Source of the DNA: Patescibacteria group bacterium
GTDB lineage: Bacteria > Patescibacteriota > Patescibacteriia > Magasanikbacterales > GWA2-37-8
Assembly (NCBI GenBank): GCA_041649475.1
Contig: JBAZNA010000001.1
Location: 878,594-942,593, forward strand
DNA: 64,000 nt
Reading direction: 5' to 3'
Part shown: positions 200 to 57,253 of the stretch, in pieces
How positions within the stretch are numbered: the stretch's first letter is position 1
How the letters are laid out: each line of letters begins with the position of its first letter
Notes under the pieces: model-generated
The model's input: only the letters and a program-made list of their open reading frames with translations
Databases searched by the model: none
What the model was told of the DNA's origin: nothing
Position numbers and translations under genes: made by a program

Positions 200-238
200 A
201 AAAAAAAAGGTGCCCGACGCGAACGTTCGCGCCGGGCC
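200..238 (-). terminator. Intrinsic terminator of the GC-rich unit (minus strand): GGGCCCGGCGCGAACGUUCGCGUCGGGCACC followed by a U9 run
   Basis: Reverse complement of 209-238 gives a perfect 11-13 bp GC stem around an ACGU loop, immediately followed by T9 (A9 on the plus strand at 200-208). Confidence 0.6.
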
Positions 239-752
239 CGGACTTCTGCGAGTGGGCGGACTTGTCGCGTGCGATGGTGGTCGCGAGCGAACACGTCACT
301 CCCTGCTTCTCTCGTCTCTCCCGGTACCCCCGGGATCTTGTAACCCCCTCGCGCCGAAGCGCGAGGGGATGACGTGCCGATCAGCTTGTGGCCGTCGGCT
401 GACCCAGCTCCTCGCAGATGGAGATGGGCTATGTTGTGTCTGAACGGGTTCCGCCGTCCGCGGGTTGATGCTGCGTTCGCTGTCAGATCAGTTCCGTCGG
501 CGTAGTTGCCGGCGACGAACTTCTGACAGTGCAACTTGGGGGCCTGGCCGGCGCCGCTTGCTGTGCTGGCGCTAGCCGCCGAGGTCCCCGGCGCCGAGGT
601 GCGCGGCGACGTCGTCGTTGCCGCCCGCGCTGTCGTCGCCGATGTTGCCGATGCCCGATGTCATGGTCGTGAAGCCGTGGCTCACCCGTACTCCTCTCGT
701 CGCATGGCGTCCCTCCTGGTCGTCGTCGCATAGAAACGCAGACAACTTCGTT
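200..752 (-). other. GC-rich (~62% GC) promoter-to-terminator unit; candidate structured RNA and/or small-peptide gene (AGGAGG-N6-ATG 7-codon ORF, then a 30-codon Gly/Asp-rich ORF)
   Basis: Consensus promoter at 759-787 (minus) and terminator at 200-238 (minus) bracket about 550 nt with no convincing long ORF. The minus-strand RNA contains a C(UUCG)G-capped 9 bp stem (344-371), the long helix ctgtcaga...tctgacag (480-530) and CAUCGG direct repeats. Confidence 0.45.
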
Positions 753-758
753 GGGCAC

Positions 759-787
759 ATAATAGCACAAAATGATGAGTTTGTCAA
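759..787 (-). promoter_or_regulatory. Sigma70-like promoter TTGACA-17-TATTAT driving the GC-rich unit leftward
   Basis: Reverse complement of 782-787 is TTGACA; reverse complement of 759-764 is TATTAT; spacer is exactly 17 bp. A near-identical 30-mer occurs at 57221-57253. Confidence 0.6.
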
Positions 788-3100: not shown

Positions 3101-3910
3101 CTAAAAATTTTCTTCCTTCTCCTTCGGCCTTCTGGTTAAAACTTCGTGACCATTTTTGGTCACTACCAAAGTGTGTTCAAAGTGAGCGCACAAAGACCTG
3201 TCAGCCATTTCAATTGTCCAGCCGTCTTTGGCGGTTCTGACGTTATAATTACCCAAAGCAATCATTGGTTCTATGGCAATAACCATGCCTGGTCTTAATT
3301 TATAACGTTCCATTGACTGATCATAAAAATTTGGAATTGGCGGATCTTCGTGCACGGCAGTTCCAACTCCATGCCCGACCAAGTCCCTGATAATACTGTA
3401 TTTTCCTTGTGATTTTACGTATTCTTCTATGGCCAAACCGATATCTGCCACTGTGTTACCCGGCTTTACCGCCTTCATACCCACCTCAAGCGCCTCACGC
3501 GTAACCCCAAGTAATTTTTTAATCTTTGGCGACACTTCGCCTATGGGAACTGTGATGGCTGTATCTGTGTAATAACCGTGTCCGCCTTTAGCGGGCCATT
3601 CCATGCCGATATCAATGCTAAAAATATCGCCGTTTTTTAAAATTCTATTTTTATGCGGAACCCCGTGCACCAATTCATGGTTTAAGGAGGCGCAAATAGT
3701 TCCGGGGAAAGGAATCTCGCCGGCACGGCTGGCGTAATCTTTAAAAGACGGCTTGCCGCCGGCCTCTATAATCATTTTTTCCGCGGCCAAATCAACCGCC
3801 AAAGTAGAAATCCCGGGCCGACACACTTTTTTAAGTTCAGCTAAAATGCGGCTGATGATCTGGCCGCCTTTTTTAATTTGGGCAATTTCCTTGGCGCTTT
3901 TTATTAACAT
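3101..3910 (-). CDS. map: Methionine aminopeptidase type I
   Basis: 269 aa; metal-ligand motifs such as HGVGTAVHEDP and a C-terminal E. Confidence 0.9.
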   Translation of the reverse strand: MLIKSAKEIAQIKKGGQIISRILAELKKVCRPGISTLAVDLAAEKMIIEAGGKPSFKDYASRAGEIPFPGTICASLNHELVHGVPHKNRILKNGDIFSIDIGMEWPAKGGHGYYTDTAITVPIGEVSPKIKKLLGVTREALEVGMKAVKPGNTVADIGLAIEEYVKSQGKYSIIRDLVGHGVGTAVHEDPPIPNFYDQSMERYKLRPGMVIAIEPMIALGNYNVRTAKDGWTIEMADRSLCAHFEHTLVVTKNGHEVLTRRPKEKEENF

Positions 3911-3911
3911 A

Positions 3912-4499
3912 CTATTTGCGACCGGCTAAAATCTTATCAATGCTTTTTTCCACTTCGGCAATACTGGGACTGCCGTCAACCTCCGCGAGCAAACCCTTGT
4001 CTTTATAAAAATTTAAAATCGGCGCCAGCGCTTTGGTTCCCTGGGTTTTCACTCTCTCCTCTACGACTTTTTGTTCATCATCTTGTCTGTTCTCAAGCAA
4101 TTTACGCTTTGCCAGCCGCGCAAAAATTTCTTTGTCCGTTAAGGAAACATGGAATACAAGCACGCTAAGTTTGTTTTCTTGAAAAAACTTTTGAAAATCT
4201 CCGGCTTGTTTTAAATTTCTAATCGCTCCGTCAAGCACGACGCCGTCTTTATTTTTTAAATCTTTAATAATCTGGGCAAAAGTTAACCGGTAAATCAAAT
4301 CATCCGGAGCCAACTCGCCTTCTTTTAAAACTTCATCCAAAATATTTTTTTCCTTTAGAGAAATCTCCGGGCTTTTGTATAAACTCCTTAACAAATCACC
4401 GGTGGAGATGTGCTCGTAATTATATTTCTCGGCTATTTTTTTGGCTTGCGTGCCCTTGCCTGACCCCGGCGGGCCAATCATTATAATAACTTTTTCCAT
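3912..4499 (-). CDS. adk: Adenylate kinase
   Basis: 195 aa; P-loop IGPPGSGKGTQA; lies in the SecY-Adk-Map order. Confidence 0.9.
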   Translation of the reverse strand: MEKVIIMIGPPGSGKGTQAKKIAEKYNYEHISTGDLLRSLYKSPEISLKEKNILDEVLKEGELAPDDLIYRLTFAQIIKDLKNKDGVVLDGAIRNLKQAGDFQKFFQENKLSVLVFHVSLTDKEIFARLAKRKLLENRQDDEQKVVEERVKTQGTKALAPILNFYKDKGLLAEVDGSPSIAEVEKSIDKILAGRK

Positions 4500-4576
4500 G
4501 TTGTATTGTGTTTTAATTAAAAAAAGGCTTTTTAAGCCCCTTTAGTTTATCATGTGTCTATATTTATTTCAATATG

Positions 4577-5851
4577 CTAGATCTGGTCGTAAGCATGCAT
4601 GGTCAGCTGTGCTTCTATTTGTTTAGCCGTCTCAATTGCCACTGAAACCACGATTAACAAACTGGTACCGCCGATGGCCAAGCTGTTTGTGCCCATGAAG
4701 CCCTGAACTATCAAAGGTAAAATGGCAATTATGCCCAAAAATAAAGCGCCAATTAAATTTATGCGATTCATGGTTTCGCCCAGATATTTTTCGGTCTCTT
4801 TGCCCGGTCTTATGCCCGGAATAAAACCGCCTTGTTTTTGCAAATTTTCAGCAATTTTTTGCGGATGGAAAATAACGGCCGTATAAAAATAGGTAAAGCC
4901 GAAAACCAACACAAAATACATTATGGCATAAAAAATCTGGTTCTGAAAAATGGCTATGGTGTGAGTCGCGAAGTTGGCAATCCAGGCGGTTTTGGCTTGG
5001 GCAAAAAATTGAGCGATAAGCGGCGGAAACAGGATCAAAGAGATGGCAAAGATAATCGGAATAACTCCGGCCATATTCACGCGCAAAGGCAAATGAGAGG
5101 TACTGCCTCCATACATACGGTTGCCGCGCACCTGTTTGGCGTAATTTACCGGAATATTGCGCTGGCCTTCATTTATGAACACCACCCCGACGATGGTTAA
5201 AAGGGCAATGCCGGCAAATAAAATCATTGTATAAAAATCGGCCGAGCTATAATTTAAAGACATGGTTCTTATCGCTCCGGGCAAAGAAGCCACAATGCCG
5301 GAAAATATCAGCAGAGAAATTCCATTGCCGATTTTTTGTTCGGTAATAAGTTCACCGAGCCACATCAAAAACATGGTACCACCGGTTATGGTGATCATAA
5401 TGGTGAAAAGGCGAAAAGGATTGATGTCGGTTATGATGGGTAAAGCCGAATTGCTAAGCAGTTTAATCATGGCGTAGGATTGTAAAAACGCCAAAGGAAC
5501 GGTAAGCAAACGCGTATAATTATTAATCTTCTGCTGGCCGGCTTCGCCTTCTTTGGTCATCTCTTCAAGCTTAGGCACGATCATGCTAAGCAACTGGAAA
5601 ATGATTGAAGCGGTGATATAAGGACCGACGCCAAGCATGACTATGGAAAAATTTTTCATTGTTCCGCCGGAAAAAACGTCCAATAAGCCAAAGACCTGAT
5701 TGCCGGCTAGAAACTGCCTTAAATTTTCCAAATTTATACCCGGGATTGGAATGTGGGCAACCAATCTGAAAACAACCAAAAGCGCAAGCACAAACAAAAC
5801 CTTGTTTCTGATGTCTTTAATTTTCCAGACCTGCTGGATTTTATCCCACAT
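4577..5851 (-). CDS. secY: Preprotein translocase SecY
   Basis: 424 aa polytopic membrane protein in the canonical position after L15. Confidence 0.95.
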   Translation of the reverse strand: MWDKIQQVWKIKDIRNKVLFVLALLVVFRLVAHIPIPGINLENLRQFLAGNQVFGLLDVFSGGTMKNFSIVMLGVGPYITASIIFQLLSMIVPKLEEMTKEGEAGQQKINNYTRLLTVPLAFLQSYAMIKLLSNSALPIITDINPFRLFTIMITITGGTMFLMWLGELITEQKIGNGISLLIFSGIVASLPGAIRTMSLNYSSADFYTMILFAGIALLTIVGVVFINEGQRNIPVNYAKQVRGNRMYGGSTSHLPLRVNMAGVIPIIFAISLILFPPLIAQFFAQAKTAWIANFATHTIAIFQNQIFYAIMYFVLVFGFTYFYTAVIFHPQKIAENLQKQGGFIPGIRPGKETEKYLGETMNRINLIGALFLGIIAILPLIVQGFMGTNSLAIGGTSLLIVVSVAIETAKQIEAQLTMHAYDQI

Positions 5852-29520: not shown

Positions 29521-29620
29521 CATATATACTCACTCATTTCGCTTATATAAACATATAAGCTCATTCGCTCAAAAATGAAATTATAAATAATTTCATTTTG
29601 TTCACTCATTTCGCTTATGA
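29521..29620 (+). repeat. Copy (a) of the A'-B-hairpin-A leader module; motif A ends in the ATG of the downstream ORF
   Basis: actcactcatttcgcttat (29528-29546), catataagctcattcgctc, 12 bp perfect inverted repeat 29572-29583 / 29588-29599, then ttcactcatttcgcttATG. Confidence 0.6.
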
Positions 29621-30078
29621 AAAGAGGAAAACCAACCCCAGAGGAAATGGCTGAAATAGCTTTTGACCGGACCGCACCCAGCCGTGCAAAGACAGGAGAC
29701 ATAACTTTGCCCAGATCAATTGCTGAACTGAGGTCAAAAATGTCTGTTCCCAAATCCGTATCCGGATCCGAATCCGAAGAAGTCCCTACCATATCCGCAA
29801 TAGCGGCTTGGGATGACTTCAGATTAGAACTGGAAAAAACCGGAAAACTGGAATCAGCAATTAAAACAATGCAAGATTACATAAACGAGATTAGAAATGA
29901 AATTGATAAAAGAAATCTGCTAATGCATTCAGACGCAATGAAACAACCCGGGAGTATGGAATACAACGGGGTAATAAGAAAAATACAAAAATTAACCAAC
30001 CCATCTATCGCCAAAAAATTTTTAAAAATTTATAAAAGAATAATAGAACAAAGAATTCATGAGTTAGAGAGCAGATAA
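29617..30078 (+). CDS. Hypothetical protein (first gene of the trpS operon)
   Basis: 153 aa; its start codon is embedded in motif A; trpS follows 14 nt later. Confidence 0.45.
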   Translation: MKRGKPTPEEMAEIAFDRTAPSRAKTGDITLPRSIAELRSKMSVPKSVSGSESEEVPTISAIAAWDDFRLELEKTGKLESAIKTMQDYINEIRNEIDKRNLLMHSDAMKQPGSMEYNGVIRKIQKLTNPSIAKKFLKIYKRIIEQRIHELESR

Positions 30079-32527: not shown

Positions 32528-33757
32528 TTATTTCTTCAAAACATCTTTGAGCTTAACCATTTCAGCGTCTTTTTGGTTGCGCATTTTAATCTCCACTGAT
32601 TGCTGTGCTAAAGTTTTTTTAGAGACAACCAATCGGGTTGGAATACCAATCAAATCCGCGTCAGCCAATTTCACTCCGGCCGTGGCTTCGCGATCATCAT
32701 AAAGCACTTCCACGCCGTTTTTTATCAGATCTTTATATAATTTTTCAGCCGCTTCTAAAATTTCTTTATCCTGACCCAATGAAACCAAATGGTACTGAAA
32801 CGGCGCGACCGATTCCGGCCAGATAATTCCATCTTTATCATTAAAAACTTCCACCAAAGTGCCCATTATCCTTGACGGACCCATTCCGTAACAGCCCATC
32901 TCCACCGGCTTCTCTTTGCCTTTGTCATCCGTGTACTTAAAACTAAAGGCGCCGGAATATTTTGTGCCCAACTTAAAAATATTTCCCACTTCAATGCCTT
33001 TTTTCTCCAACAAATCAGAATTGCCGCATTCCGGACAGGCATTTTGGTCATTTATAATTTCTTTATTTACCGCCACTTTGCATTTCTCACAAAAATAAAT
33101 AGTGTCCTCGCCGATTTCAGATAAGGTTTGAAATTCATGAGAATATTTGGAAAACATTCCGCCGGAAGCGTAGGTCTTAATGGTGATATTACCTATTCCC
33201 AATCTTTCATAGACCTTAAAATATGCCTCTATCACTTTTTTGTAATATTCATCCAAGTCCTCGGTTGAGGTATGGAAAGAATACATGTCTTTCATGTTGA
33301 ATTCGCGGCCGCGGAGCAGTCCGGATTTGGCGCGCGGTTCATTTCTGAATTTATTTTGAATCTGATAAACCGACACCGGCAGATCGCGGTAGGAAAAAGT
33401 ATATTTTTGCACCAGGGGCGTCACCACTTCTTCGTGGGTTGGGTTTAAAACCAATTTCGCGCCGCCCTCGCCTTCAGTACGGAAAAAAACATCTATGGTA
33501 TTTCGGCCGGTGGTGACATAACTTTCTTCAGAGGTTAAAACCGGCATCAAGACCTCATTTCCGCCCACCGCATTCATTTCCTCGCGGATGATATTTTGAA
33601 TTTTGTTAAGCACGCGAAGCCCTAGTGGCAAATAATTGTAAACTCCGGCCATTTGTTTGGAAATAAATCCACCTTGACTTAACAGTTTGGCGTTTATGCT
33701 ACCCTCATCAGCCGGCTGGCTCTTGCTGGTTTTCCCGAAAAGATTTGAATATTTCAT
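32528..33757 (-). CDS. proS: Prolyl-tRNA synthetase (short form lacking the editing insertion)
   Basis: 409 aa; class II motif 2 FRNEPRAKSGLLRGREFNMKDMYSF; C-terminal anticodon-binding domain. Confidence 0.8.
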   Translation of the reverse strand: MKYSNLFGKTSKSQPADEGSINAKLLSQGGFISKQMAGVYNYLPLGLRVLNKIQNIIREEMNAVGGNEVLMPVLTSEESYVTTGRNTIDVFFRTEGEGGAKLVLNPTHEEVVTPLVQKYTFSYRDLPVSVYQIQNKFRNEPRAKSGLLRGREFNMKDMYSFHTSTEDLDEYYKKVIEAYFKVYERLGIGNITIKTYASGGMFSKYSHEFQTLSEIGEDTIYFCEKCKVAVNKEIINDQNACPECGNSDLLEKKGIEVGNIFKLGTKYSGAFSFKYTDDKGKEKPVEMGCYGMGPSRIMGTLVEVFNDKDGIIWPESVAPFQYHLVSLGQDKEILEAAEKLYKDLIKNGVEVLYDDREATAGVKLADADLIGIPTRLVVSKKTLAQQSVEIKMRNQKDAEMVKLKDVLKK

Positions 33758-33830
33758 AAGCGAAATGAATGAGTGAAATGCGTTGTTTACAACGGCATTT
33801 CCGAATGAATGAGCTTATATGATAATATAG
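33750..33830 (-). repeat. Copy (b) of the B-hairpin-A leader module, immediately upstream of the proS ATG
   Basis: Reverse complement gives ...catataagctcattcattcgg / gaaatgccgttg..caacgcatttc / actcattcatttcgcttATG (the proS start). Confidence 0.55.
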
Positions 33831-33941: not shown

Positions 33942-34013
33942 TCTGGGGTAGTTTAATGGTAAAACGCCACGCTGTTAACGTGGTTAGTGTAGGTTCGATT
34001 CCTACCCCCAGAG
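33942..34013 (+). tRNA. tRNA-Asn (anticodon GTT)
   Basis: Folded by hand: acceptor UCUGGGG/CCCCAGA, D-stem GUUU/AAAC, anticodon stem CCACG/CGUGG with loop CUGUUAA, T-arm GUAGG-UUCGAUU-CCUAC, discriminator G; followed by a GGCCC...GGGUC-U6 terminator. Confidence 0.85.
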
Positions 34014-34215
34014 CTATGAAAAAAGGCCCAAAGTTATTCGGGTCTTTTTTCATAATTTTGCGGGAGGAAGCGAACAAAGGGGTGGCGGGGAAAGTATTTC
34101 CCCGCATTGCTGGGGGTGACCGAAGCCGCCAACCACTGTTAGAGTAGAGGCGGCCGAGGGCAAGAGGGGCGGAAGCCCCTATTGAGGAGCGCGCGAGCGA
34201 AGCGAGCGGCGCGAC

Positions 34216-37405: not shown

Positions 37406-37615
37406 ATGCCGATCTTTGGCAGTGACGAAGACAGATACACAACTTGGAAATGCCCTTCGTGCCACAACTACTTCGGCAGAAGCGGCAAGTGTTCCGTCTG
37501 CGGCGACACGCTAGTGCAGAGTGCCATCTCCGACGCGGCGGTCAACCGCATCATCTACGCTAGGGACATCGAACGGCCCCGGCAACAAGACCAGAAAAAG
37601 CGCGAAGGAGGATAA
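37406..37615 (+). CDS. Small zinc-ribbon protein (GC-rich cassette)
   Basis: 69 aa; CPSC...17...CSVC; its stop overlaps the RBS of the next ORF. Confidence 0.5.
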   Translation: MPIFGSDEDRYTTWKCPSCHNYFGRSGKCSVCGDTLVQSAISDAAVNRIIYARDIERPRQQDQKKREGG

Positions 37616-37621
37616 GGCGCC

Positions 37622-37909
37622 ATGGCAAAAAAAGTCATAAATGGCCAGGTCATAGACGACCTTGGGATAGATCTCGACAGCTTACCCCTCCCAGCGCAAC
37701 TGCTGGAGGAGCGGCGGCGCAAGGGTCATCCCATCGAGATCCCAAGCTTGGGCGTCATCATCATGCCCGATGGAACCGTGGTGGACAAGGGCCTGCCCCC
37801 GGACGACTACGCTAGGGCCAGCCCGTCCGAAAAGACCGCCACGCTCAAGCGGTACGAGCCAGAGCAGGGTTTCTTCGCCCGCCTGTGGCGGCGGATCTTT
37901 CACAAATGA
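37622..37909 (+). CDS. Hypothetical 95 aa protein (GC-rich cassette)
   Basis: GAAGGAGG RBS then ATG; ~60% GC; followed immediately by repeat R1. Confidence 0.5.
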   Translation: MAKKVINGQVIDDLGIDLDSLPLPAQLLEERRRKGHPIEIPSLGVIIMPDGTVVDKGLPPDDYARASPSEKTATLKRYEPEQGFFARLWRRIFHK

Positions 37910-37915
37910 GTTCGT

Positions 37916-38000
37916 TCATTCCCCAAGGAGGGTGCTCCGCGAACAGCAACAACAGTTCGCACCCCTCAAAAGCAACTCACCAGATGGGTTGTTTTTGTTT
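37916..38000 (+). repeat. R1: ~87 bp 3' module (GCGAAC...GTTCGC hairpin plus T-rich tail), 84/87 identical to R2
   Basis: tcattccccaaggagggtgctccgcgaacagcaacaacagttcgcacccctcaaaagcaactcaccagatgggttgtttttgttt. Confidence 0.6.
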
Positions 38001-38066
38001 AGGTTGGGGTGTCTTTATTTTCCTATATAGCGTATGCTACAGATATTAAGACCTAACACTGAATTT

Positions 38067-38519
38067 ATGATAAAACCACTGCTTATTCTGCCTCTGTTAA
38101 TTTTAGCCGGAGCCGGATGCGCATACGCGCCAGCCACAAATAATCAAACTAACTTAAACTACAGCAACCAAAACCTGACTTCGGCTCCGGCTGGAATTTT
38201 TGATAGAACCGACGCTACCAGTCTTGATCTCTCACACAATAATCTGACTGGAGCCATCCCAGCGGAAATAAGATTTTTACAAAATCTTAAAGTTCTGAAC
38301 TTGAGTAATAATAAAATGACTGGCCTGCCCGCCGAAATCGGCCAATTAAAAAATCTGGAAATTCTTGACGTGTCCAACAACCAACTGACCGGCCTGCCAT
38401 ATGAATTGGGAAATCTAAAAAACTTAAAAACCCTGAATTTGTCTGGCAACGCGTACTCCGAACAAGACCTCCAAATCATCCGCGAGAAAATCCCAAATGC
38501 GAATATTATTACTAAATAA
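38067..38519 (+). CDS. Secreted leucine-rich-repeat protein (native AT-rich composition)
   Basis: Signal peptide MIKPLLILPLLILAGAGCAYA; four LxxLxxLxLSxNxLTGLP repeats. Confidence 0.7.
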   Translation: MIKPLLILPLLILAGAGCAYAPATNNQTNLNYSNQNLTSAPAGIFDRTDATSLDLSHNNLTGAIPAEIRFLQNLKVLNLSNNKMTGLPAEIGQLKNLEILDVSNNQLTGLPYELGNLKNLKTLNLSGNAYSEQDLQIIREKIPNANIITK

Positions 38520-38626
38520 GTGCTTTCAACTGGATCCTTCTTGAACTTAAATAAGAGCTTCATCGAACATTGACGGCTCATCTTTTTTCATATTTAATAT
38601 ACATACCCAAATGAAGGAGGACAGGC

Positions 38627-39442
38627 ATGCGCATTATCTTGTTGAGTTTCGTGCTCGGGATCTGTGTATCAAGTGTGCCCCACCATGGGATCGCCCAAAG
38701 AGATTCGTCAAGACCATCCCTGGCCACACTGGACAAGCAGATCTTCACCCAGAACACGGTGATTGAGGCCGATCGGATCGAGATCCAGAGTGGAGCCAGG
38801 ATCCGCGTCCGCAACGGAGCGGCCTTGAAGCTCAAGGCAGACACCATCGTGATCTTTGGCCCCGCCTTCATCGACGGCCGCGGCGAACCCGGCCACCAAG
38901 GCGCTCCCGGGCAATCGAAGAACGACACCTGGCGGAGCAGCGGTGGCGGCGGGTGGTATAGCTGCGATATCGCCCATCGCGACTGGGTGGCTTCCGGAAG
39001 TGAGGTTGACCGCGGCGGGGATGGTGGACCGGGCGGTCCCGGAGGACCTGGGGCGATCATCATCCTGGAGTACAGGGACCTACAGGGTCCCGCCAACCTG
39101 CAAACCGAATTCCGAGGCGGACCGGGCGGTCCCGGAGGACCTGGTGGAACCGGCAGAATCCTCTGCTGCGGTTGCCACAACAACGAGTGCAAGCGGGGTC
39201 CTTCGGGTAGGTCAGGGCCAAACGGCCAGCCAGGTCCCAATGGACGGGAAGTTCGTCGAAGTCTGACGAGAACCCAATCCATTGATTCCACCAGCATCAC
39301 GCCGCCGCCGGAGCGCATGGAGTCGTGCTACCCCAACCCCTGTCCGTCCGGAATCTGCTGCGAGAACCAAGGCAGAATCTGGTGCTGTTCCGAAGGACAG
39401 TACTGCACCTATTCGCCTGATGGATGCAAGTACCGCAAGTAG
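38627..39442 (+). CDS. Secreted Gly/Pro-rich (GPGGPGGPG), Cys-rich protein (GC-rich cassette)
   Basis: AAGGAGG-N6-ATG; signal peptide MRIILLSFVLGICVSS; two GGPGGPGGPG tracts; 15 Cys in the last 120 aa (CCGCHNNEC, CCENQGRIWCC). Confidence 0.55.
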   Translation: MRIILLSFVLGICVSSVPHHGIAQRDSSRPSLATLDKQIFTQNTVIEADRIEIQSGARIRVRNGAALKLKADTIVIFGPAFIDGRGEPGHQGAPGQSKNDTWRSSGGGGWYSCDIAHRDWVASGSEVDRGGDGGPGGPGGPGAIIILEYRDLQGPANLQTEFRGGPGGPGGPGGTGRILCCGCHNNECKRGPSGRSGPNGQPGPNGREVRRSLTRTQSIDSTSITPPPERMESCYPNPCPSGICCENQGRIWCCSEGQYCTYSPDGCKYRK

Positions 39443-39560
39443 GCCGTCGCTCTTTTCTCCTCCGCCAGTCTGGCCCTTCCAGCTGGCTTCTTTTTTTATC
39501 AAAAATAATTGTATTCCAAATAAAGTCATGTTAAACTGACTGAAAGAGGAGGATGGGACA

Positions 39561-39938
39561 ATGAAAAAATACAAGCACTTCTCGGGTGCAGTGCTGATGA
39601 GAGACGAACTCAAAAAGAAGTTCGGCACGCCGAAGTGGCTCGCCGGCATCGTTGTGATGCACACCGTCCGGTATGGCTACCTCGTGGAAGTACGCGTCTT
39701 CGGCAAGGCCAAGTTCCCCAAGCTACCCAGGTTGCCTCTCTACCTCCGGGATGCCACCAGGGTCCGCTTCCGGCGGGTGAAGAAAACACCGGAAGCGCGA
39801 CTGAAGAGGGCAATCGCCCGGTTTGAAGATCCGGCTTCGCACGTCGCCGACAATGTTGCTCTCTCAGCAACCCTACACGAAGCCGCCGAAGCCCACTCCA
39901 AAATCCTGGGACCACATGGCCGCCTTCGACATTGCTAA
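39561..39938 (+). CDS. Hypothetical basic 125 aa protein (GC-rich cassette)
   Basis: AGAGGAGG RBS; ~58% GC; followed immediately by repeat R2. Confidence 0.5.
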   Translation: MKKYKHFSGAVLMRDELKKKFGTPKWLAGIVVMHTVRYGYLVEVRVFGKAKFPKLPRLPLYLRDATRVRFRRVKKTPEARLKRAIARFEDPASHVADNVALSATLHEAAEAHSKILGPHGRLRHC

Positions 39939-39940
39939 AC

Positions 39941-40027
39941 TCATTCCCCAAGGAGGGTGCTCCGCGAACGGCAACAAAAGTTCGCACCCCTCAAAAGCAA
40001 CTCACCCGATGGGTTGTTTTTGTTTAC
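39941..40027 (+). repeat. R2: second copy of the 87 bp 3' module
   Basis: Differs from R1 at three positions; starts 3 nt after the stop, as R1 does (7 nt after its stop). Confidence 0.6.
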
Positions 40028-55630: not shown

Positions 55631-55664
55631 AAAAAAGGGCATACGGTGTGAACACCGGATGCCC
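55631..55664 (-). terminator. Intrinsic terminator GGGCAUCCGGUGUUCACACCGUAUGCCC plus U6
   Basis: 6 + 6 bp interrupted stem, then T6 on the minus strand. Confidence 0.6.
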
Positions 55665-56415
55665 AATGGGACCCGAGGATACTCTGGACCTGGGGGTGGT
55701 CGTAAATCCCCGTTTCCCGTGGGGTTCTGCTTCCCCGTGGCTCACCACTACGCAGGTGACTCGACCCATCTGCCTTTCGGCCACCAGGGCGGGTGTAGAT
55801 CTTGGGAGGGCGGCACGGGCGCTTGCATGTCATCAGTCGGGCTGTTAAGCCCTATGTGTGGAACAGCAGCTTCACCTGACGCTCCTTTCTTTTCCTCTGC
55901 GGGTGTTCGACCCCCGGATAGAGGTCGAATACTCGATAAAGGTGGGAAACGAGAGAGTGAACCCCCGCGTTTCCCGTACTGCACTGCTTCCATGCTTTGG
56001 CGCGACCCTGCGAGGTTACGGCCCTTGAGTTGAGAGAATAGTACTTCCCCGAAGGCTTTCCTATCCCGTACAACCTGGGCCTGCATAGTACCCCGAAGTG
56101 ACTTTGCCCTGCTTGGGCGTTGGCTAGGGGTGTGGTCGCCACTTAATTCCACACCTTGCGTTTAACTGCGCACGACACCTCCATCCTTGGGTGGTGTCAC
56201 CCTTGCTTGGCGCGGGAGCTTTGTCGTAATGCTCCGCAGCGCGGGTTTACGGTTTACGTGCGCCTAATGGACGCACGCACGGCGGGATCTACTTCTGTGA
56301 CCCCGAGTTAGAGAAACGGGCCATAACGCATGTGGTCCACTCCTCCACCGAGCCGCCGGCACATAGTCCGAGGGCCTTTCACAGGCCGCTAAATATTAAC
56401 GGACTACGAAAGATA
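55665..56415 (-). ncRNA. Candidate large structured ncRNA (~750 nt, ~60% GC) with its own promoter and terminator
   Basis: No credible ORF in either orientation; multiple GNRA/UUCG-capped helices (GGCCGAAAGGC, GCCUUCGGGG, CACUUCGGGG, GGGAAACG...CGUUUCCC). Confidence 0.45.
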
Positions 56416-56422
56416 ATGGATT

Positions 56423-56451
56423 AGTATAGCAGAAATTGTTCGGTTTGTCAA
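56423..56451 (-). promoter_or_regulatory. Promoter TTGACA-17-TATACT for the GC-rich ncRNA candidate
   Basis: Reverse complement of 56446-56451 is TTGACA; reverse complement of 56423-56428 is TATACT; located in a short AT-rich spacer. Confidence 0.55.
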
Positions 56452-56702
56452 CCTCTCGACCACTTTGGTCAAGAGGCAATTACTTACCACTTCGCTTTAA
56501 TGTCCCCACATAAGTGAGAGTCCAAAGATCAAAATGGAAAGTAATTGGGAGCCGAAGTGTTTGAGCACTGCGGCTGTGCCTCCAGCAATGTTCGCTCGCG
56601 CGAACGATTCGCATGGCCAGCCGCGTGGCACACTAGGGGTGCGGCTGTTAGGGCTGGTGGTCTGCCTCATACCTGATGCGCACGGAACGATCTCCGTTGA
56701 CA

Positions 56703-56918
56703 TCACAGGTCCAGGAGCAAACCCCCTTGTAGACACCCTCTGTCTTCTTGACCTTGGAGAGGTCGCTGATCTGTCGGCCGTCCTTTGACGTTGGAAGCCG
56801 CCTCCGCGAGAACTGCGAGGATGACGATGGCGATGATGACCCAGAAGGTGAACTTGTAGATCCCCTTCTCGTTCAGGTACCAGTCCATGTCGGATATCTT
56901 GTTCCTGATCTTACCCAT
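56703..56918 (-). CDS. Small single-transmembrane protein (71 aa) in a GC-rich unit
   Basis: AAGGAGAGG-N3-ATG; MGKIRNKISDMDWYLNEKGIYKFTFWVIIAIVILAVLAEAAS... Confidence 0.4.
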   Translation of the reverse strand: MGKIRNKISDMDWYLNEKGIYKFTFWVIIAIVILAVLAEAASNVKGRPTDQRPLQGQEDRGCLQGGLLLDL

Positions 56919-57224
56919 GTTCCTCTCCTTATCCTCGAACCACCCACACAAACCAACGCGCATGCGCCAGTCCGGGGCGGCTTCTTTCTCTAAGTTGAAA
57001 TGAACACAGAATGTTTCCATCCTGGACCGAGTGAACGACCCTATAACGTAGATTATTCACTTCGTTCAAAATGACAACGCCCATATTAACACAAAATCCC
57101 TCGTTGAGAGAGATTCTTGTTTGTCGCCCTTGTCAGGGCTAAAATTAGAGTATATTTTACTTGCGCCTAGCTGCACCTCTCTCAAATGCCACTATGCGCC
57201 TATTTTTTGATACTTAAACAAGCA

Positions 57225-57253
57225 AGTATAGCACAAATGAGAGATTTTGTCAA
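57225..57253 (-). promoter_or_regulatory. Promoter TTGACA-17-TATACT (30-mer paralogous to 759-787)
   Basis: Reverse complement of 57248-57253 is TTGACA; reverse complement of 57225-57230 is TATACT; immediately downstream of the ileS stop. Confidence 0.55.

Follow-up and report, generated by a model that had tools for sequence, protein, structure and literature searches.

A structured RNA family with a conserved four-hairpin 3' core and a putatively translated leader, located 3' of asnS in Candidatus Magasanikbacteria

The 64,000-nucleotide stretch of DNA analyzed here (the window; contig JBAZNA010000001.1 of assembly GCA_041649475.1, positions 878,594 to 942,593) carries asnS (856-2148), then recO, ruvX, and a ribosomal-protein cluster, a gene content that places it in Candidatus Magasanikbacteria of the Patescibacteria, or Candidate Phyla Radiation (CPR). 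On the plus strand, positions 1 to 200 hold the 3' end of a convergent gene for a Metallophos phosphoesterase, which has its stop codon at 198-200. Between this gene and asnS, on the 3' side of the latter, sits a GC-rich block with a GC content of 0.63 to 0.70, against 0.44 over the whole window. The interpretation to which we give a little better than an even chance is that this block encodes an independently transcribed structured RNA of ~550 nucleotides (nt) (~752 to ~203, minus strand), the 5' third of which would be a translated leader and which would have a regulatory or protein-binding role in trans. Judging from sequence comparison, the RNA belongs to a new family that is not in Rfam and that is known so far from just one subgroup of Candidatus Magasanikbacteria, in each case directly 3' of asnS.

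The limits of the unit are marked by signals that recur among its relatives. The TTGACA-17-TATTAT element, present on the minus strand as a preliminary description of this DNA had reported, is the only promoter-like site in positions 1 to 1200; no antisense promoter was found in the same interval, and transcription is predicted to start near position 752. Near-consensus promoters lie at the equivalent place in all homologues, and promoter and terminator signals occur in nine loci; the comparison shows both kinds of signal to be conserved. Upstream of the promoter, the sequence of the asnS terminator is kept in most unit-bearing loci, as a ATCGCTAAnnTTAGCGAT hairpin in L082, L083, L180, and L183 (L numbers designate asnS loci of relatives) and as the variant GCCGCTAA in L178 and L085, with a different hairpin in L081. 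At the other end, the U-run of the unit's own terminator reaches the stop codon of the convergent Metallophos gene, and homologous GGCCCGGCG...CGCCGGGCAC-T-run terminators are found in L081, L083, L180, L183, and L087, with variants in L082, L178, and L179. The 30-mer that contains the promoter had been described as paralogous to the one at 57221-57253. It is 74 to 87% similar over 27 to 30 nt to three other promoters of the window, including 57227-57253, and the pieces TTGACAAA and TGTGCTAT are common to these promoters; the same pieces are also present in promoters of relatives, including tRNA-Leu promoters, and the likeness is that of a common promoter consensus, with no evidence of paralogy. 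Paralogy of the unit with the other GC-rich units of the window was likewise rejected, because promoters alone match.

Homologues of the unit fall into two subfamilies. A first pass with blastn, tblastn, and nhmmer against 160 asnS loci returned no homologue and missed a partial one in L085; this truncated homologue, which includes the 5' module, came to light when the DNA downstream of asnS in the nearest relatives was read through. Cluster members of the L085 AsnRS then yielded L178 and L179, two full-length homologues with the order asnS, unit, convergent Metallophos gene. They are matched by nhmmer over nearly their full length (E values of 1.2e-10 for L179 and 2.2e-10 for L178); the window's unit (W) is 62% identical to the full-length homologues, which are 91% identical to each other. 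The distant subfamily consists of L082, L083, L180, and L183, together with a reduced form in L081, and lies between asnS and a tRNA-Leu gene. Its members share the promoter, the upstream asnS terminator (except in L081), the four-hairpin 3' core, and the unit-type terminator. When 1.2 Mb of asnS loci from relatives was searched with R1, a covariance model built on the core, the seven known loci were the only ones found; the 64-kb window has a single copy of the unit. The distant subfamily also has a motif of its own, ACGYAAYAC followed by a 5- to 6-bp stem with a UCGAG or UCAAG loop and by GCUNGUGCG, with compensatory changes in the stem. It occurs in L081 (~4215-4260), L082 (~4412-4455 and ~4545-4590), L083 (~2285-2330), L180 (~3428-3470), and L183 (~3575-3620), always within a short open reading frame (ORF; e.g., ...RNTRFETAARA*), and is absent from the window's RNA.

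The 3' two-thirds of the unit carries the evidence for a structured RNA. The whole unit folds better than all of its dinucleotide shuffles (z-score of -4.8, or -3.6 without the terminator), compared with z-scores of -1.0 to -2.2 for GC-rich coding segments of the window used as controls. The surplus in folding energy comes entirely from the 3' part (240-571; z-score of -3.3), and the ORF-bearing 5' part shows none (z-score of 0.1), so that the earlier picture of a highly structured transcript holds for the unit as a whole but is due to its 3' part only. Of the individual elements in that picture, the nested helix and the palindromic terminator are present, and so is the UUCG-capped stem, which at 370-343 has 10 Watson-Crick pairs (12 counting U-G and A-U) rather than the 9 claimed and presents cUUCGg on the promoter strand. 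When W, L178, and L179 were aligned with MAFFT and folded with RNAalifold, with no fitting by hand, the outer nested helix and the hairpins hpX, hpA, hpB, and hpC were all recovered. Compensatory changes in this unfitted alignment include G-C to A-U in hpA and A-U to G-C in hpC; the outer nested helix reads CUGCCAG/CUGGCAG in L178 and L179, a compensatory change from U-A to C-G. In an alignment of the core from seven sequences, which was made by hand around the hairpins and leans toward structure (hpX and hpB being aligned as hairpins, not as sequence), 96.4% of cells pair and both sides change in 17 of 27 pairs; none of 500 shuffles pairs as highly, and slid controls reach 32 to 46%. Folding without any alignment gives a single hairpin in the stretch between hpA and hpC and another in the stretch upstream of hpA in all seven sequences (z-scores of -2.0 to -5.8); these hairpin stretches flank the sequence-conserved hpA and hpC, and their own sequences are unrelated between lineages. 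Comparison of the two subfamilies thus shows that pairing in the 3' two-thirds is kept by compensatory substitutions. Because the four-hairpin core is the part common to all members, it is likely the functional body of the RNA. Between L178 and L179, identity reaches 95 to 96% in the noncoding 3' domain, against 74% in the second of the two ORFs described below, and the conserved 3' element near the terminator is 96% identical.

Table 1. Predicted features of the unit and of its upstream boundary, in window coordinates
Feature	Position	Strand	Details
Bidirectional intrinsic terminator of asnS	807-840	minus	AAAAAAATCGCTAAAATAAGCGATTTTTTT; 14 pairs, A-run and T-run
Sigma-70-type promoter	787-759	minus	TTGACA 787-782, 17 nt, TATTAT 764-759; TG extended -10; 11/12 matches
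5'-terminal small hairpin	743-753	minus	CAAC-GAA-GUUG; from sequence reading and alignment
Shine-Dalgarno sequence	717-712	minus	AGGAGG, 6 nt before first ATG (705)
Mini-ORF 1	705-682	minus	AUG CGA CGA GAG GAG UAC GGG UGA, MRREEYG; TGA 684-682
Spacer, UGA stop to second AUG	665-681	minus	17 nt; 3' end is the conserved CGACC
ORF 2	664-572	minus	30 codons, MTSGIGNIGDDSAGGNDDVAAHLGAGDLGG; Gly/Asp-rich, three CATCGG repeats; TAG 574-572
Conserved box across ORF 2 end	547-583	minus	CUCGGCGGC...GCCAGC...GGCGCCGGC; anchored alignment of W, L178, L179
Nested helix	529-480	minus	Outer CUGUCAGA 529-522/UCUGACAG 487-480; inner GUUCGUCG 520-513/CGACgGAAC 499-491
3' core (hpX, hpA, hpB, hpC)	431-316	minus	Covariance model R1, 72.6 bits, E value 4.9e-16
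hpX	428-420/411-403	minus	
hpA	399-395/380-376	minus	GCCGA 399-395, UCGGC 380-376
hpB	368-345	minus	CCCCUCGCGC-UUCG-GCGCGAGGGG
hpC	334-320	minus	CCCGG-GGGUA-CCGGG
Conserved 3' element	276-245	minus	AUCGC-ACGCGA-CAAG-CCGCC-CGCAGA; in W, L178, L179
Intrinsic terminator of unit	237-212, then T9 208-200	minus	GCCCGGCGCGAACGUUCGCGUCGGGC; 11 pairs, 9 G-C

Searches for a known relative of this RNA were negative. With Rfam 15 (4,227 models), the sole match in the window at gathering score is its tRNA-Asn. For the body of the unit (203-752), the matches with an E value of 10 or less all lie far under their gathering scores (gntR-DTE, 14.9 against 63.6; ryfA, 15.5 against 80; Gl_U1, 12.7 against 100; ncS035, 11.3 against 79), and the homologues give just tRNA or terminator-like chance matches. 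The Rfam 15 models for OLE, ROOL, GOLLD, raiA, 6S, RNase P, tmRNA, CsrB, and amino acid leaders do not match the unit, and an ARAGORN scan found no tmRNA and only the tRNA-Asn, which lies elsewhere in the window. Plasmids searched with blastn gave nothing beyond GC-rich chance matches of 40 to 53 nt, the exact hairpin pattern was absent from the metagenome and viral contigs scanned, and degenerate 5'-module and hpC patterns gave only chance matches on viral contigs, as confirmed by blastn and model R1. We found no description in the literature of such an RNA in Patescibacteria or Magasanikbacteria. A phage-borne or mobile-element RNA was accordingly rejected as a candidate, as the unit occurs once in the 64-kb window, is found at the asnS site only in the 1.2 Mb of relatives' loci searched, and has no true match on viral contigs or plasmids.

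At the 5' end, several features that a ribosome would use are conserved. The small 5'-terminal stem is invariant, so that it offers no covariation, and it encloses a larger loop in L178, L179, and L085. The Shine-Dalgarno sequence (SD) and first start codon described for the window are present, and the stretch AGGAGG-N6-ATGCG is identical in L085, L178, and L179. The MRREEYG of mini-ORF 1 corresponds to MREDTG in L178 and L085 and to MQEDTG in L179, an in-frame indel of 3 nt accounting for the difference in length; the pattern is M-[RQ]-(R)-E-[ED]-[YT]-G, with GAGGA and GGGUGAG stretches that are invariant and a UGA stop in all four close homologues. The distance from this stop to the second AUG, given in the preliminary description as 21 nt, is exactly 17 nt in W, L178, L179, and L085, even though only ~8 of the 17 bases are common to W and L178. 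In L178, L179, and L085, the spacer forms a hairpin (GGUCGC-loop-GCGACC) whose 3' strand abuts the second AUG (AUG2), which has no SD of its own. The SD, the first AUG (AUG1), the UGA, the 17-nt spacer, and AUG2 are thus kept in four of four members of the close subfamily while the bases between them diverge, from which we conclude that the SD is not incidental.

The second ORF, which is built with CATCGG repeats as claimed, presents a mixed picture. It is open in all versions of the close subfamily (30, 29, and 26 codons in W, L178, and L179), and the indels between L178 and L179 within it sum to 9 nt, so that the frame is kept. In W, the GC contents at codon positions 1, 2, and 3 are 0.71, 0.52, and 0.97; third-position GC (GC3) in the AUG2 frame is 0.97 in W and 0.97 and 0.92 in the homologues, against 0.45 to 0.71 at positions 1 and 2, and a hand count of the partial L085 ORF 2 gives G or C in 13 of 14 third positions. 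The genome's genes, including those for ribosomal proteins, have a GC3 of 0.45; this figure and the share of AAC among Asn codons, just 0.39, led us to reject the use of optimal codons as the cause of the high GC3. The encoded peptides are Gly/Asp/Asn-rich and hydrophilic in every version (by hand count, Asn codons make up 5 of 29 in L178, 4 of 26 in L179, and 2 of 30 in the window) but cannot be aligned, as MTSGIGNIGDDSAGGNDDVAAHLGAGDLGG in W stands against MSKRNENGTNRNGGVDIRFPAAAKSQHHN and MSKRNNRNEGVGVDTRSSAAKSQRHN. ORF 2 is in fact the hypervariable, fastest-evolving segment of the unit, with 74% identity between L178 and L179 compared with 95% in the core, and a GAGGGCGTCG motif common to L085 and L179 is read in different frames by the two. 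A search of 5.8 billion protein clusters with the joined translations of the three sense frames (not the antisense ones) returned no homologue, and no long ORF of the unit has a Pfam match.

Because a codon-phase signal and conserved translation signals coincide with a lack of excess 5' structure, we infer that ribosomes read the 5' region. The peptide is not conserved, and for this reason it is itself probably not the product that matters. A substantial, though minority, possibility is that the RNA is purely noncoding and structured, with AGGAGG, GAGGA, and GGGUGAG acting as RNA-level elements for protein binding or pairing and with ORFs that are accidental and untranslated. The lack of peptide conservation, the rapid evolution of ORF 2, and the reading of GAGGGCGTCG in different frames are all what such an RNA would show; open frames are common at 65% GC, and the core is conserved in the distant subfamily, where the 5' ORF module is absent or different. 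Against this possibility stand the consensus SD at optimal spacing, the AUG, the in-frame stop, and the exact 17-nt spacer, all kept amid divergence, as well as the GC3 of 0.92 to 0.97 in the AUG2 phase of W, L178, and L179, with the partial L085 agreeing by hand count; nor is there excess 5' structure that would explain the 5' conservation. The opposite alternative, in which the unit is an mRNA for one or two small proteins (of 6 to 7 and/or 26 to 30 amino acids, the latter hydrophilic) and the 330 nt on the 3' side is a stabilizing 3' untranslated region, is distinctly unlikely. It would account for the conserved SD, start, and stop, for the retained pattern of mini-ORF 1, and for the codon periodicity and indel-tolerant frame of ORF 2. 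It sits poorly with a noncoding 3' domain that is the most conserved part (95 to 96% against 74% between L178 and L179) and is also present in the subfamily without such ORFs, and with an ORF 2 that is unalignable and lacks protein-database homologues; a product of 6 to 7 residues with substitutions at four or five positions (R/Q, an extra R, E/D, and Y/T) is an unlikely effector.

These results bear on what had first been proposed for the unit. A small secreted or modified peptide gene is unsupported, given a fastest-evolving, unalignable peptide with no protein homologue and a shared motif read in different frames. The proposal of a small RNA (sRNA) that happens to carry an SD is supported and can be made more precise: compensatory changes preserve the helices in both subfamilies, and the SD, as noted above, is not incidental. 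Setting the conservation of the ORFs against that of the helices points both ways. The distant subfamily retains the 3' helices but lacks the ORFs or has others in their place, which points to a noncoding RNA core; the close subfamily retains the seven-codon ORF. A leader peptide or attenuator arrangement finds no support either, because nothing downstream in the same orientation could be attenuated: the terminator abuts the stop codon of a convergent gene, and the next gene in the distant subfamily is a tRNA-Leu gene with its own promoter. This sets the unit apart from the trp, his, and leu attenuators, in which a regulated gene of the same orientation lies past the terminator. We identified no antiterminator alternative to the unit terminator, and ~330 nt of conserved hairpins lies between ORF 2 and the terminator.

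Our favored reading, a structured RNA with a translated leader, entails the following sequence of events. In the window's subfamily, the consensus SD would drive translation of the 6- to 7-codon mini-ORF 1, which ends in UGA. A ribosome terminating at this UGA would sit on the hairpin-forming 17-nt spacer and could restart at the SD-less AUG2 by termination-reinitiation coupling. The reinitiated ribosome would then read the 26 to 30 codons of ORF 2, the sequence of which is free to vary while its codon phase is kept; for that reason, the act of translation, and not the peptide, is what likely matters, e.g., by determining how the RNA domain downstream folds, how stable it is, or how accessible. 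The role of the RNA would be exerted in trans, through regulation or protein binding.

Several points weigh against this reading. The failure of the ORF 2 peptide to be conserved and the fast evolution of the ORF 2 body would also fit an unconstrained linker. Slippage of triplet repeats (CATCGG, GGC, and GAC) is an alternative source of the ORF 2 periodicity, and a 30-codon open frame is not improbable at 65% GC. The distant subfamily lacks the SD/mini-ORF module and has different 5' modules in its place, so that translation is not essential to core function. Few independent lineages are available, the close subfamily amounting effectively to two (W on one side and the L178, L179, and L085 group on the other), and the seven-sequence core alignment leans toward structure, as described above. 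Lastly, the unit is missing at the asnS site in L175 and L176, relatives whose AsnRS is 92% and 88% identical to that of the window. Since such close relatives do without it at this site, the RNA is probably dispensable.

The same patchiness is seen elsewhere. L001, L088, and L181 likewise have no unit at the asnS site, and most relatives that share the gene order have only 5 to 106 nt between asnS and the Metallophos gene, so that the RNA unit appears as an insertion of ~600 nt. The short gaps usually contain one bidirectional terminator; in L175 there are just a few bases. In L087, at ~1630-1720, half of the upstream asnS terminator (AAATCGCTAACCTTA) is joined directly to a unit-type terminator (GGCCCGGCGC...GCGCCGGGCAC plus a T-run), and this locus, which is without the RNA, looks like the deletion scar of an entire RNA gene. 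The simplest history suggested by these loci is that of an ancestral RNA gene that was lost repeatedly.

This setting raises the question of whether the unit serves its neighbors in cis, as an insulator or terminator block between the convergent asnS and Metallophos genes or by antisense pairing with Metallophos read-through. The unit does always lie immediately 3' of asnS, its terminator U-run touches the stop codon of the convergent gene, and no T-run follows the 212-237 hairpin on the plus strand, so that Metallophos transcripts may read into the unit. A cis-acting role is nevertheless very unlikely, as most relatives of the same gene order manage with a 5- to 106-nt gap and usually one bidirectional terminator, the downstream neighbor differs between subfamilies (Metallophos in the close one and tRNA-Leu in the distant one), and a consensus promoter of its own plus 27 conserved base pairs exceeds what an insulator needs.

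The gap 3' of asnS is occupied by other cargo in further relatives. In L004 (5357-6050), L008 (5401-5883), L014 (2130-2690), and L084 (4530-5410), it holds unrelated protein genes that are GC-rich, face either way, and have near-perfect sigma-70 promoters. Judging from these loci, the gap is a recurrent insertion hotspot for GC-rich cargo in Magasanikbacteria; no recombinase gene is present in the interval from asnS through the unit to Metallophos. The unit could by the same token be the decaying remnant of a horizontally acquired GC-rich protein gene with its promoter still upstream, and besides the cargo genes of these four loci, a stretch of ~50 codons with coding-like GC3 and a frame (m2) that is open for ~170 codons could be cited in its favor. 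We hold this to be extremely improbable: homologues that are 62% identical keep the helices by compensatory change and keep no reading frame, the frames tested have no protein or Pfam homologue, and the ~170-codon frame lacks codon periodicity and runs through the terminator.

Three further candidates of known type were tried and rejected. A CsrA sponge of the CsrB/RsmZ type would call for an excess of GGA. Five of eight members have no more GGA than expected from shuffled sequences, and the others show no significant surplus; the window's unit has 10 GGA against 12.1 expected. The motif is carried only by the hpC loop, which is GAGGA in six of seven sequences, and by some hpA loops; the window's hpC loop is GGGUA. 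A type I toxin-antitoxin system or hydrophobic toxin is at odds with the hydrophilic ORF 2 and with the absence of an antisense promoter in positions 1 to 1200. The third candidate, a prfB-like +1 frameshift, is brought to mind by an SD-like GAGGAG or GAGGAC 3 to 4 nt before the last sense codon, followed by UGA, as at the prfB (release factor 2 [RF2]) site. In the +1 frame, 66 codons stay open in W and 93 in L178, but L179 runs into a stop after just 11, and the encoded products bear no relation to one another.

In overall architecture, the RNA resembles dual-function sRNAs, though it is a member of no known family of these. RNAIII of Staphylococcus aureus is 514 nt long and encodes the 26-amino-acid delta-hemolysin, and SgrS/SgrT and SR1/SR1P are further dual-function sRNAs. 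Like RNAIII, SgrS, and SR1, the window's RNA is predicted, here from sequence signals and covariation, to be transcribed on its own, between a dedicated promoter and an intrinsic terminator, and it has in common with dual-function sRNAs a length of ~550 nt, an ORF of 26 to 30 codons near the 5' end, a 3' domain of several hairpins, and an RNA body that is more conserved than the peptide. Unlike in RNAIII, SgrS, and SR1, the longer ORF comes after a mini-ORF of 6 to 7 codons that has the sole SD; the RNA is related to them neither in sequence nor through Rfam, its peptide is wholly unconserved, no C-rich anti-SD loops were identified, and its hosts are uncultivated CPR bacteria.

The arrangement of the two ORFs recalls that of the erm and cat leaders and of termination-reinitiation pairs, where a strong SD serves a very short ORF and, a fixed short distance further on, a hairpin precedes a start codon that lacks an SD. 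By analogy with erm/cat-type coupling, a ribosome finishing mini-ORF 1 would open the SD-less start. Unlike in the erm and cat leaders, the second ORF is a variable 26 to 30 codons inside a structured RNA and not a resistance or enzyme gene, and no gene is controlled downstream; we know of no stalling motif.

The large noncoding RNAs of the OLE, ROOL, GOLLD, and raiA type offer another comparison, having been discovered as GC-rich intergenic regions (PMC6429828, PMC11109978). The window's RNA shares with them a long GC-rich intergenic island in an AT-richer genome, many covarying hairpins, and a patchy spread, and some members of its family adjoin a tRNA gene. It departs from them in having conserved translation signals, in its absence from the viral contigs searched, in a far narrower phylogenetic range, and in a 5' domain that differs between subfamilies.

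An extension of our favored reading, which we regard as rather unlikely, is that the RNA is a translation-gated riboregulator. Ribosomes would be led by the SD, the mini-ORF, the restart, and the hypervariable ORF into the conserved box at 583-547, where they would switch the fold, activity, or stability of the four-hairpin core, so that the RNA would read out the translational state of the cell. The state sensed could be, e.g., the supply of Asn-tRNA or of RF2, given the invariant UGA and the place beside asnS.

Several other features of the window were noted. A second GC-rich unit (55640-56451, minus strand) of ~780 nt and 0.58 GC has a TTGACA-N17-TATACT promoter (56451-56425), a hairpin and T-run end near 55650, and several UUCG-type hairpins. 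Its fold z-score is -2.8, that of the antisense strand -1.7. The unit shows neither a convincing ORF nor a match to Rfam or R1 and is a candidate for a further noncoding RNA. The neighboring GC-richer unit (56480-57253, minus strand; promoter 57253-57225) contains an ORF (56703-57020) with a transmembrane-like helix; the plausible protein switches to a different frame near 56790 (KVKKTEGVYKGVCSWTCDVNGDRSVRIRYEADHQP), which suggests a frameshift, a pseudogene, or an assembly error. A cluster of GC-rich (0.58 to 0.63) small genes at 37407-39938, each with a consensus promoter and AGGAGG, contrasts with the 0.44 GC of the genome, and none of the four genes of the cluster that were tested has a Pfam match. 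One of the genes (38627-39442) encodes a secreted-looking protein with GGPGGPGGPG repeats and a Cys-rich C terminus. Two copies of an 86-nt direct repeat, 97% identical (37916-38001 and 39941-40026) and with a hairpin and a T-rich tail, follow the GC-rich small genes at 37622-37909 and 39561-39938; the repeat looks like a shared 3' module or terminator cassette. Inverted repeats of ~85 nt that are 77 to 86% complementary (29544-29630 and 33752-33829) flank a 4.1-kb segment adjoining the tRNA-Asn gene (33942-34014), and this segment may be invertible or mobile.

The CPR bacteria, or Patescibacteria, are uncultivated and have reduced genomes, and to our knowledge almost nothing is known of their regulatory RNAs. 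The unit described here provides a new RNA family that is concrete enough to be modeled and searched for in metagenomes and metatranscriptomes: ~550 nt with a strong promoter, clear covariation, and a narrow, patchy distribution. Its 5' end, in which conserved translation signals lead into a hypervariable but codon-phased ORF, makes it possible to ask, in a tractable setting, whether translation of an ORF can be important when its peptide is not. If the translation-gated scheme were true, a trans-acting structured RNA of this kind would represent a sensing design not described for bacterial sRNAs. Finally, the gap 3' of asnS, as a recurrent insertion site, bears on how the small genomes of Magasanikbacteria acquire genes.

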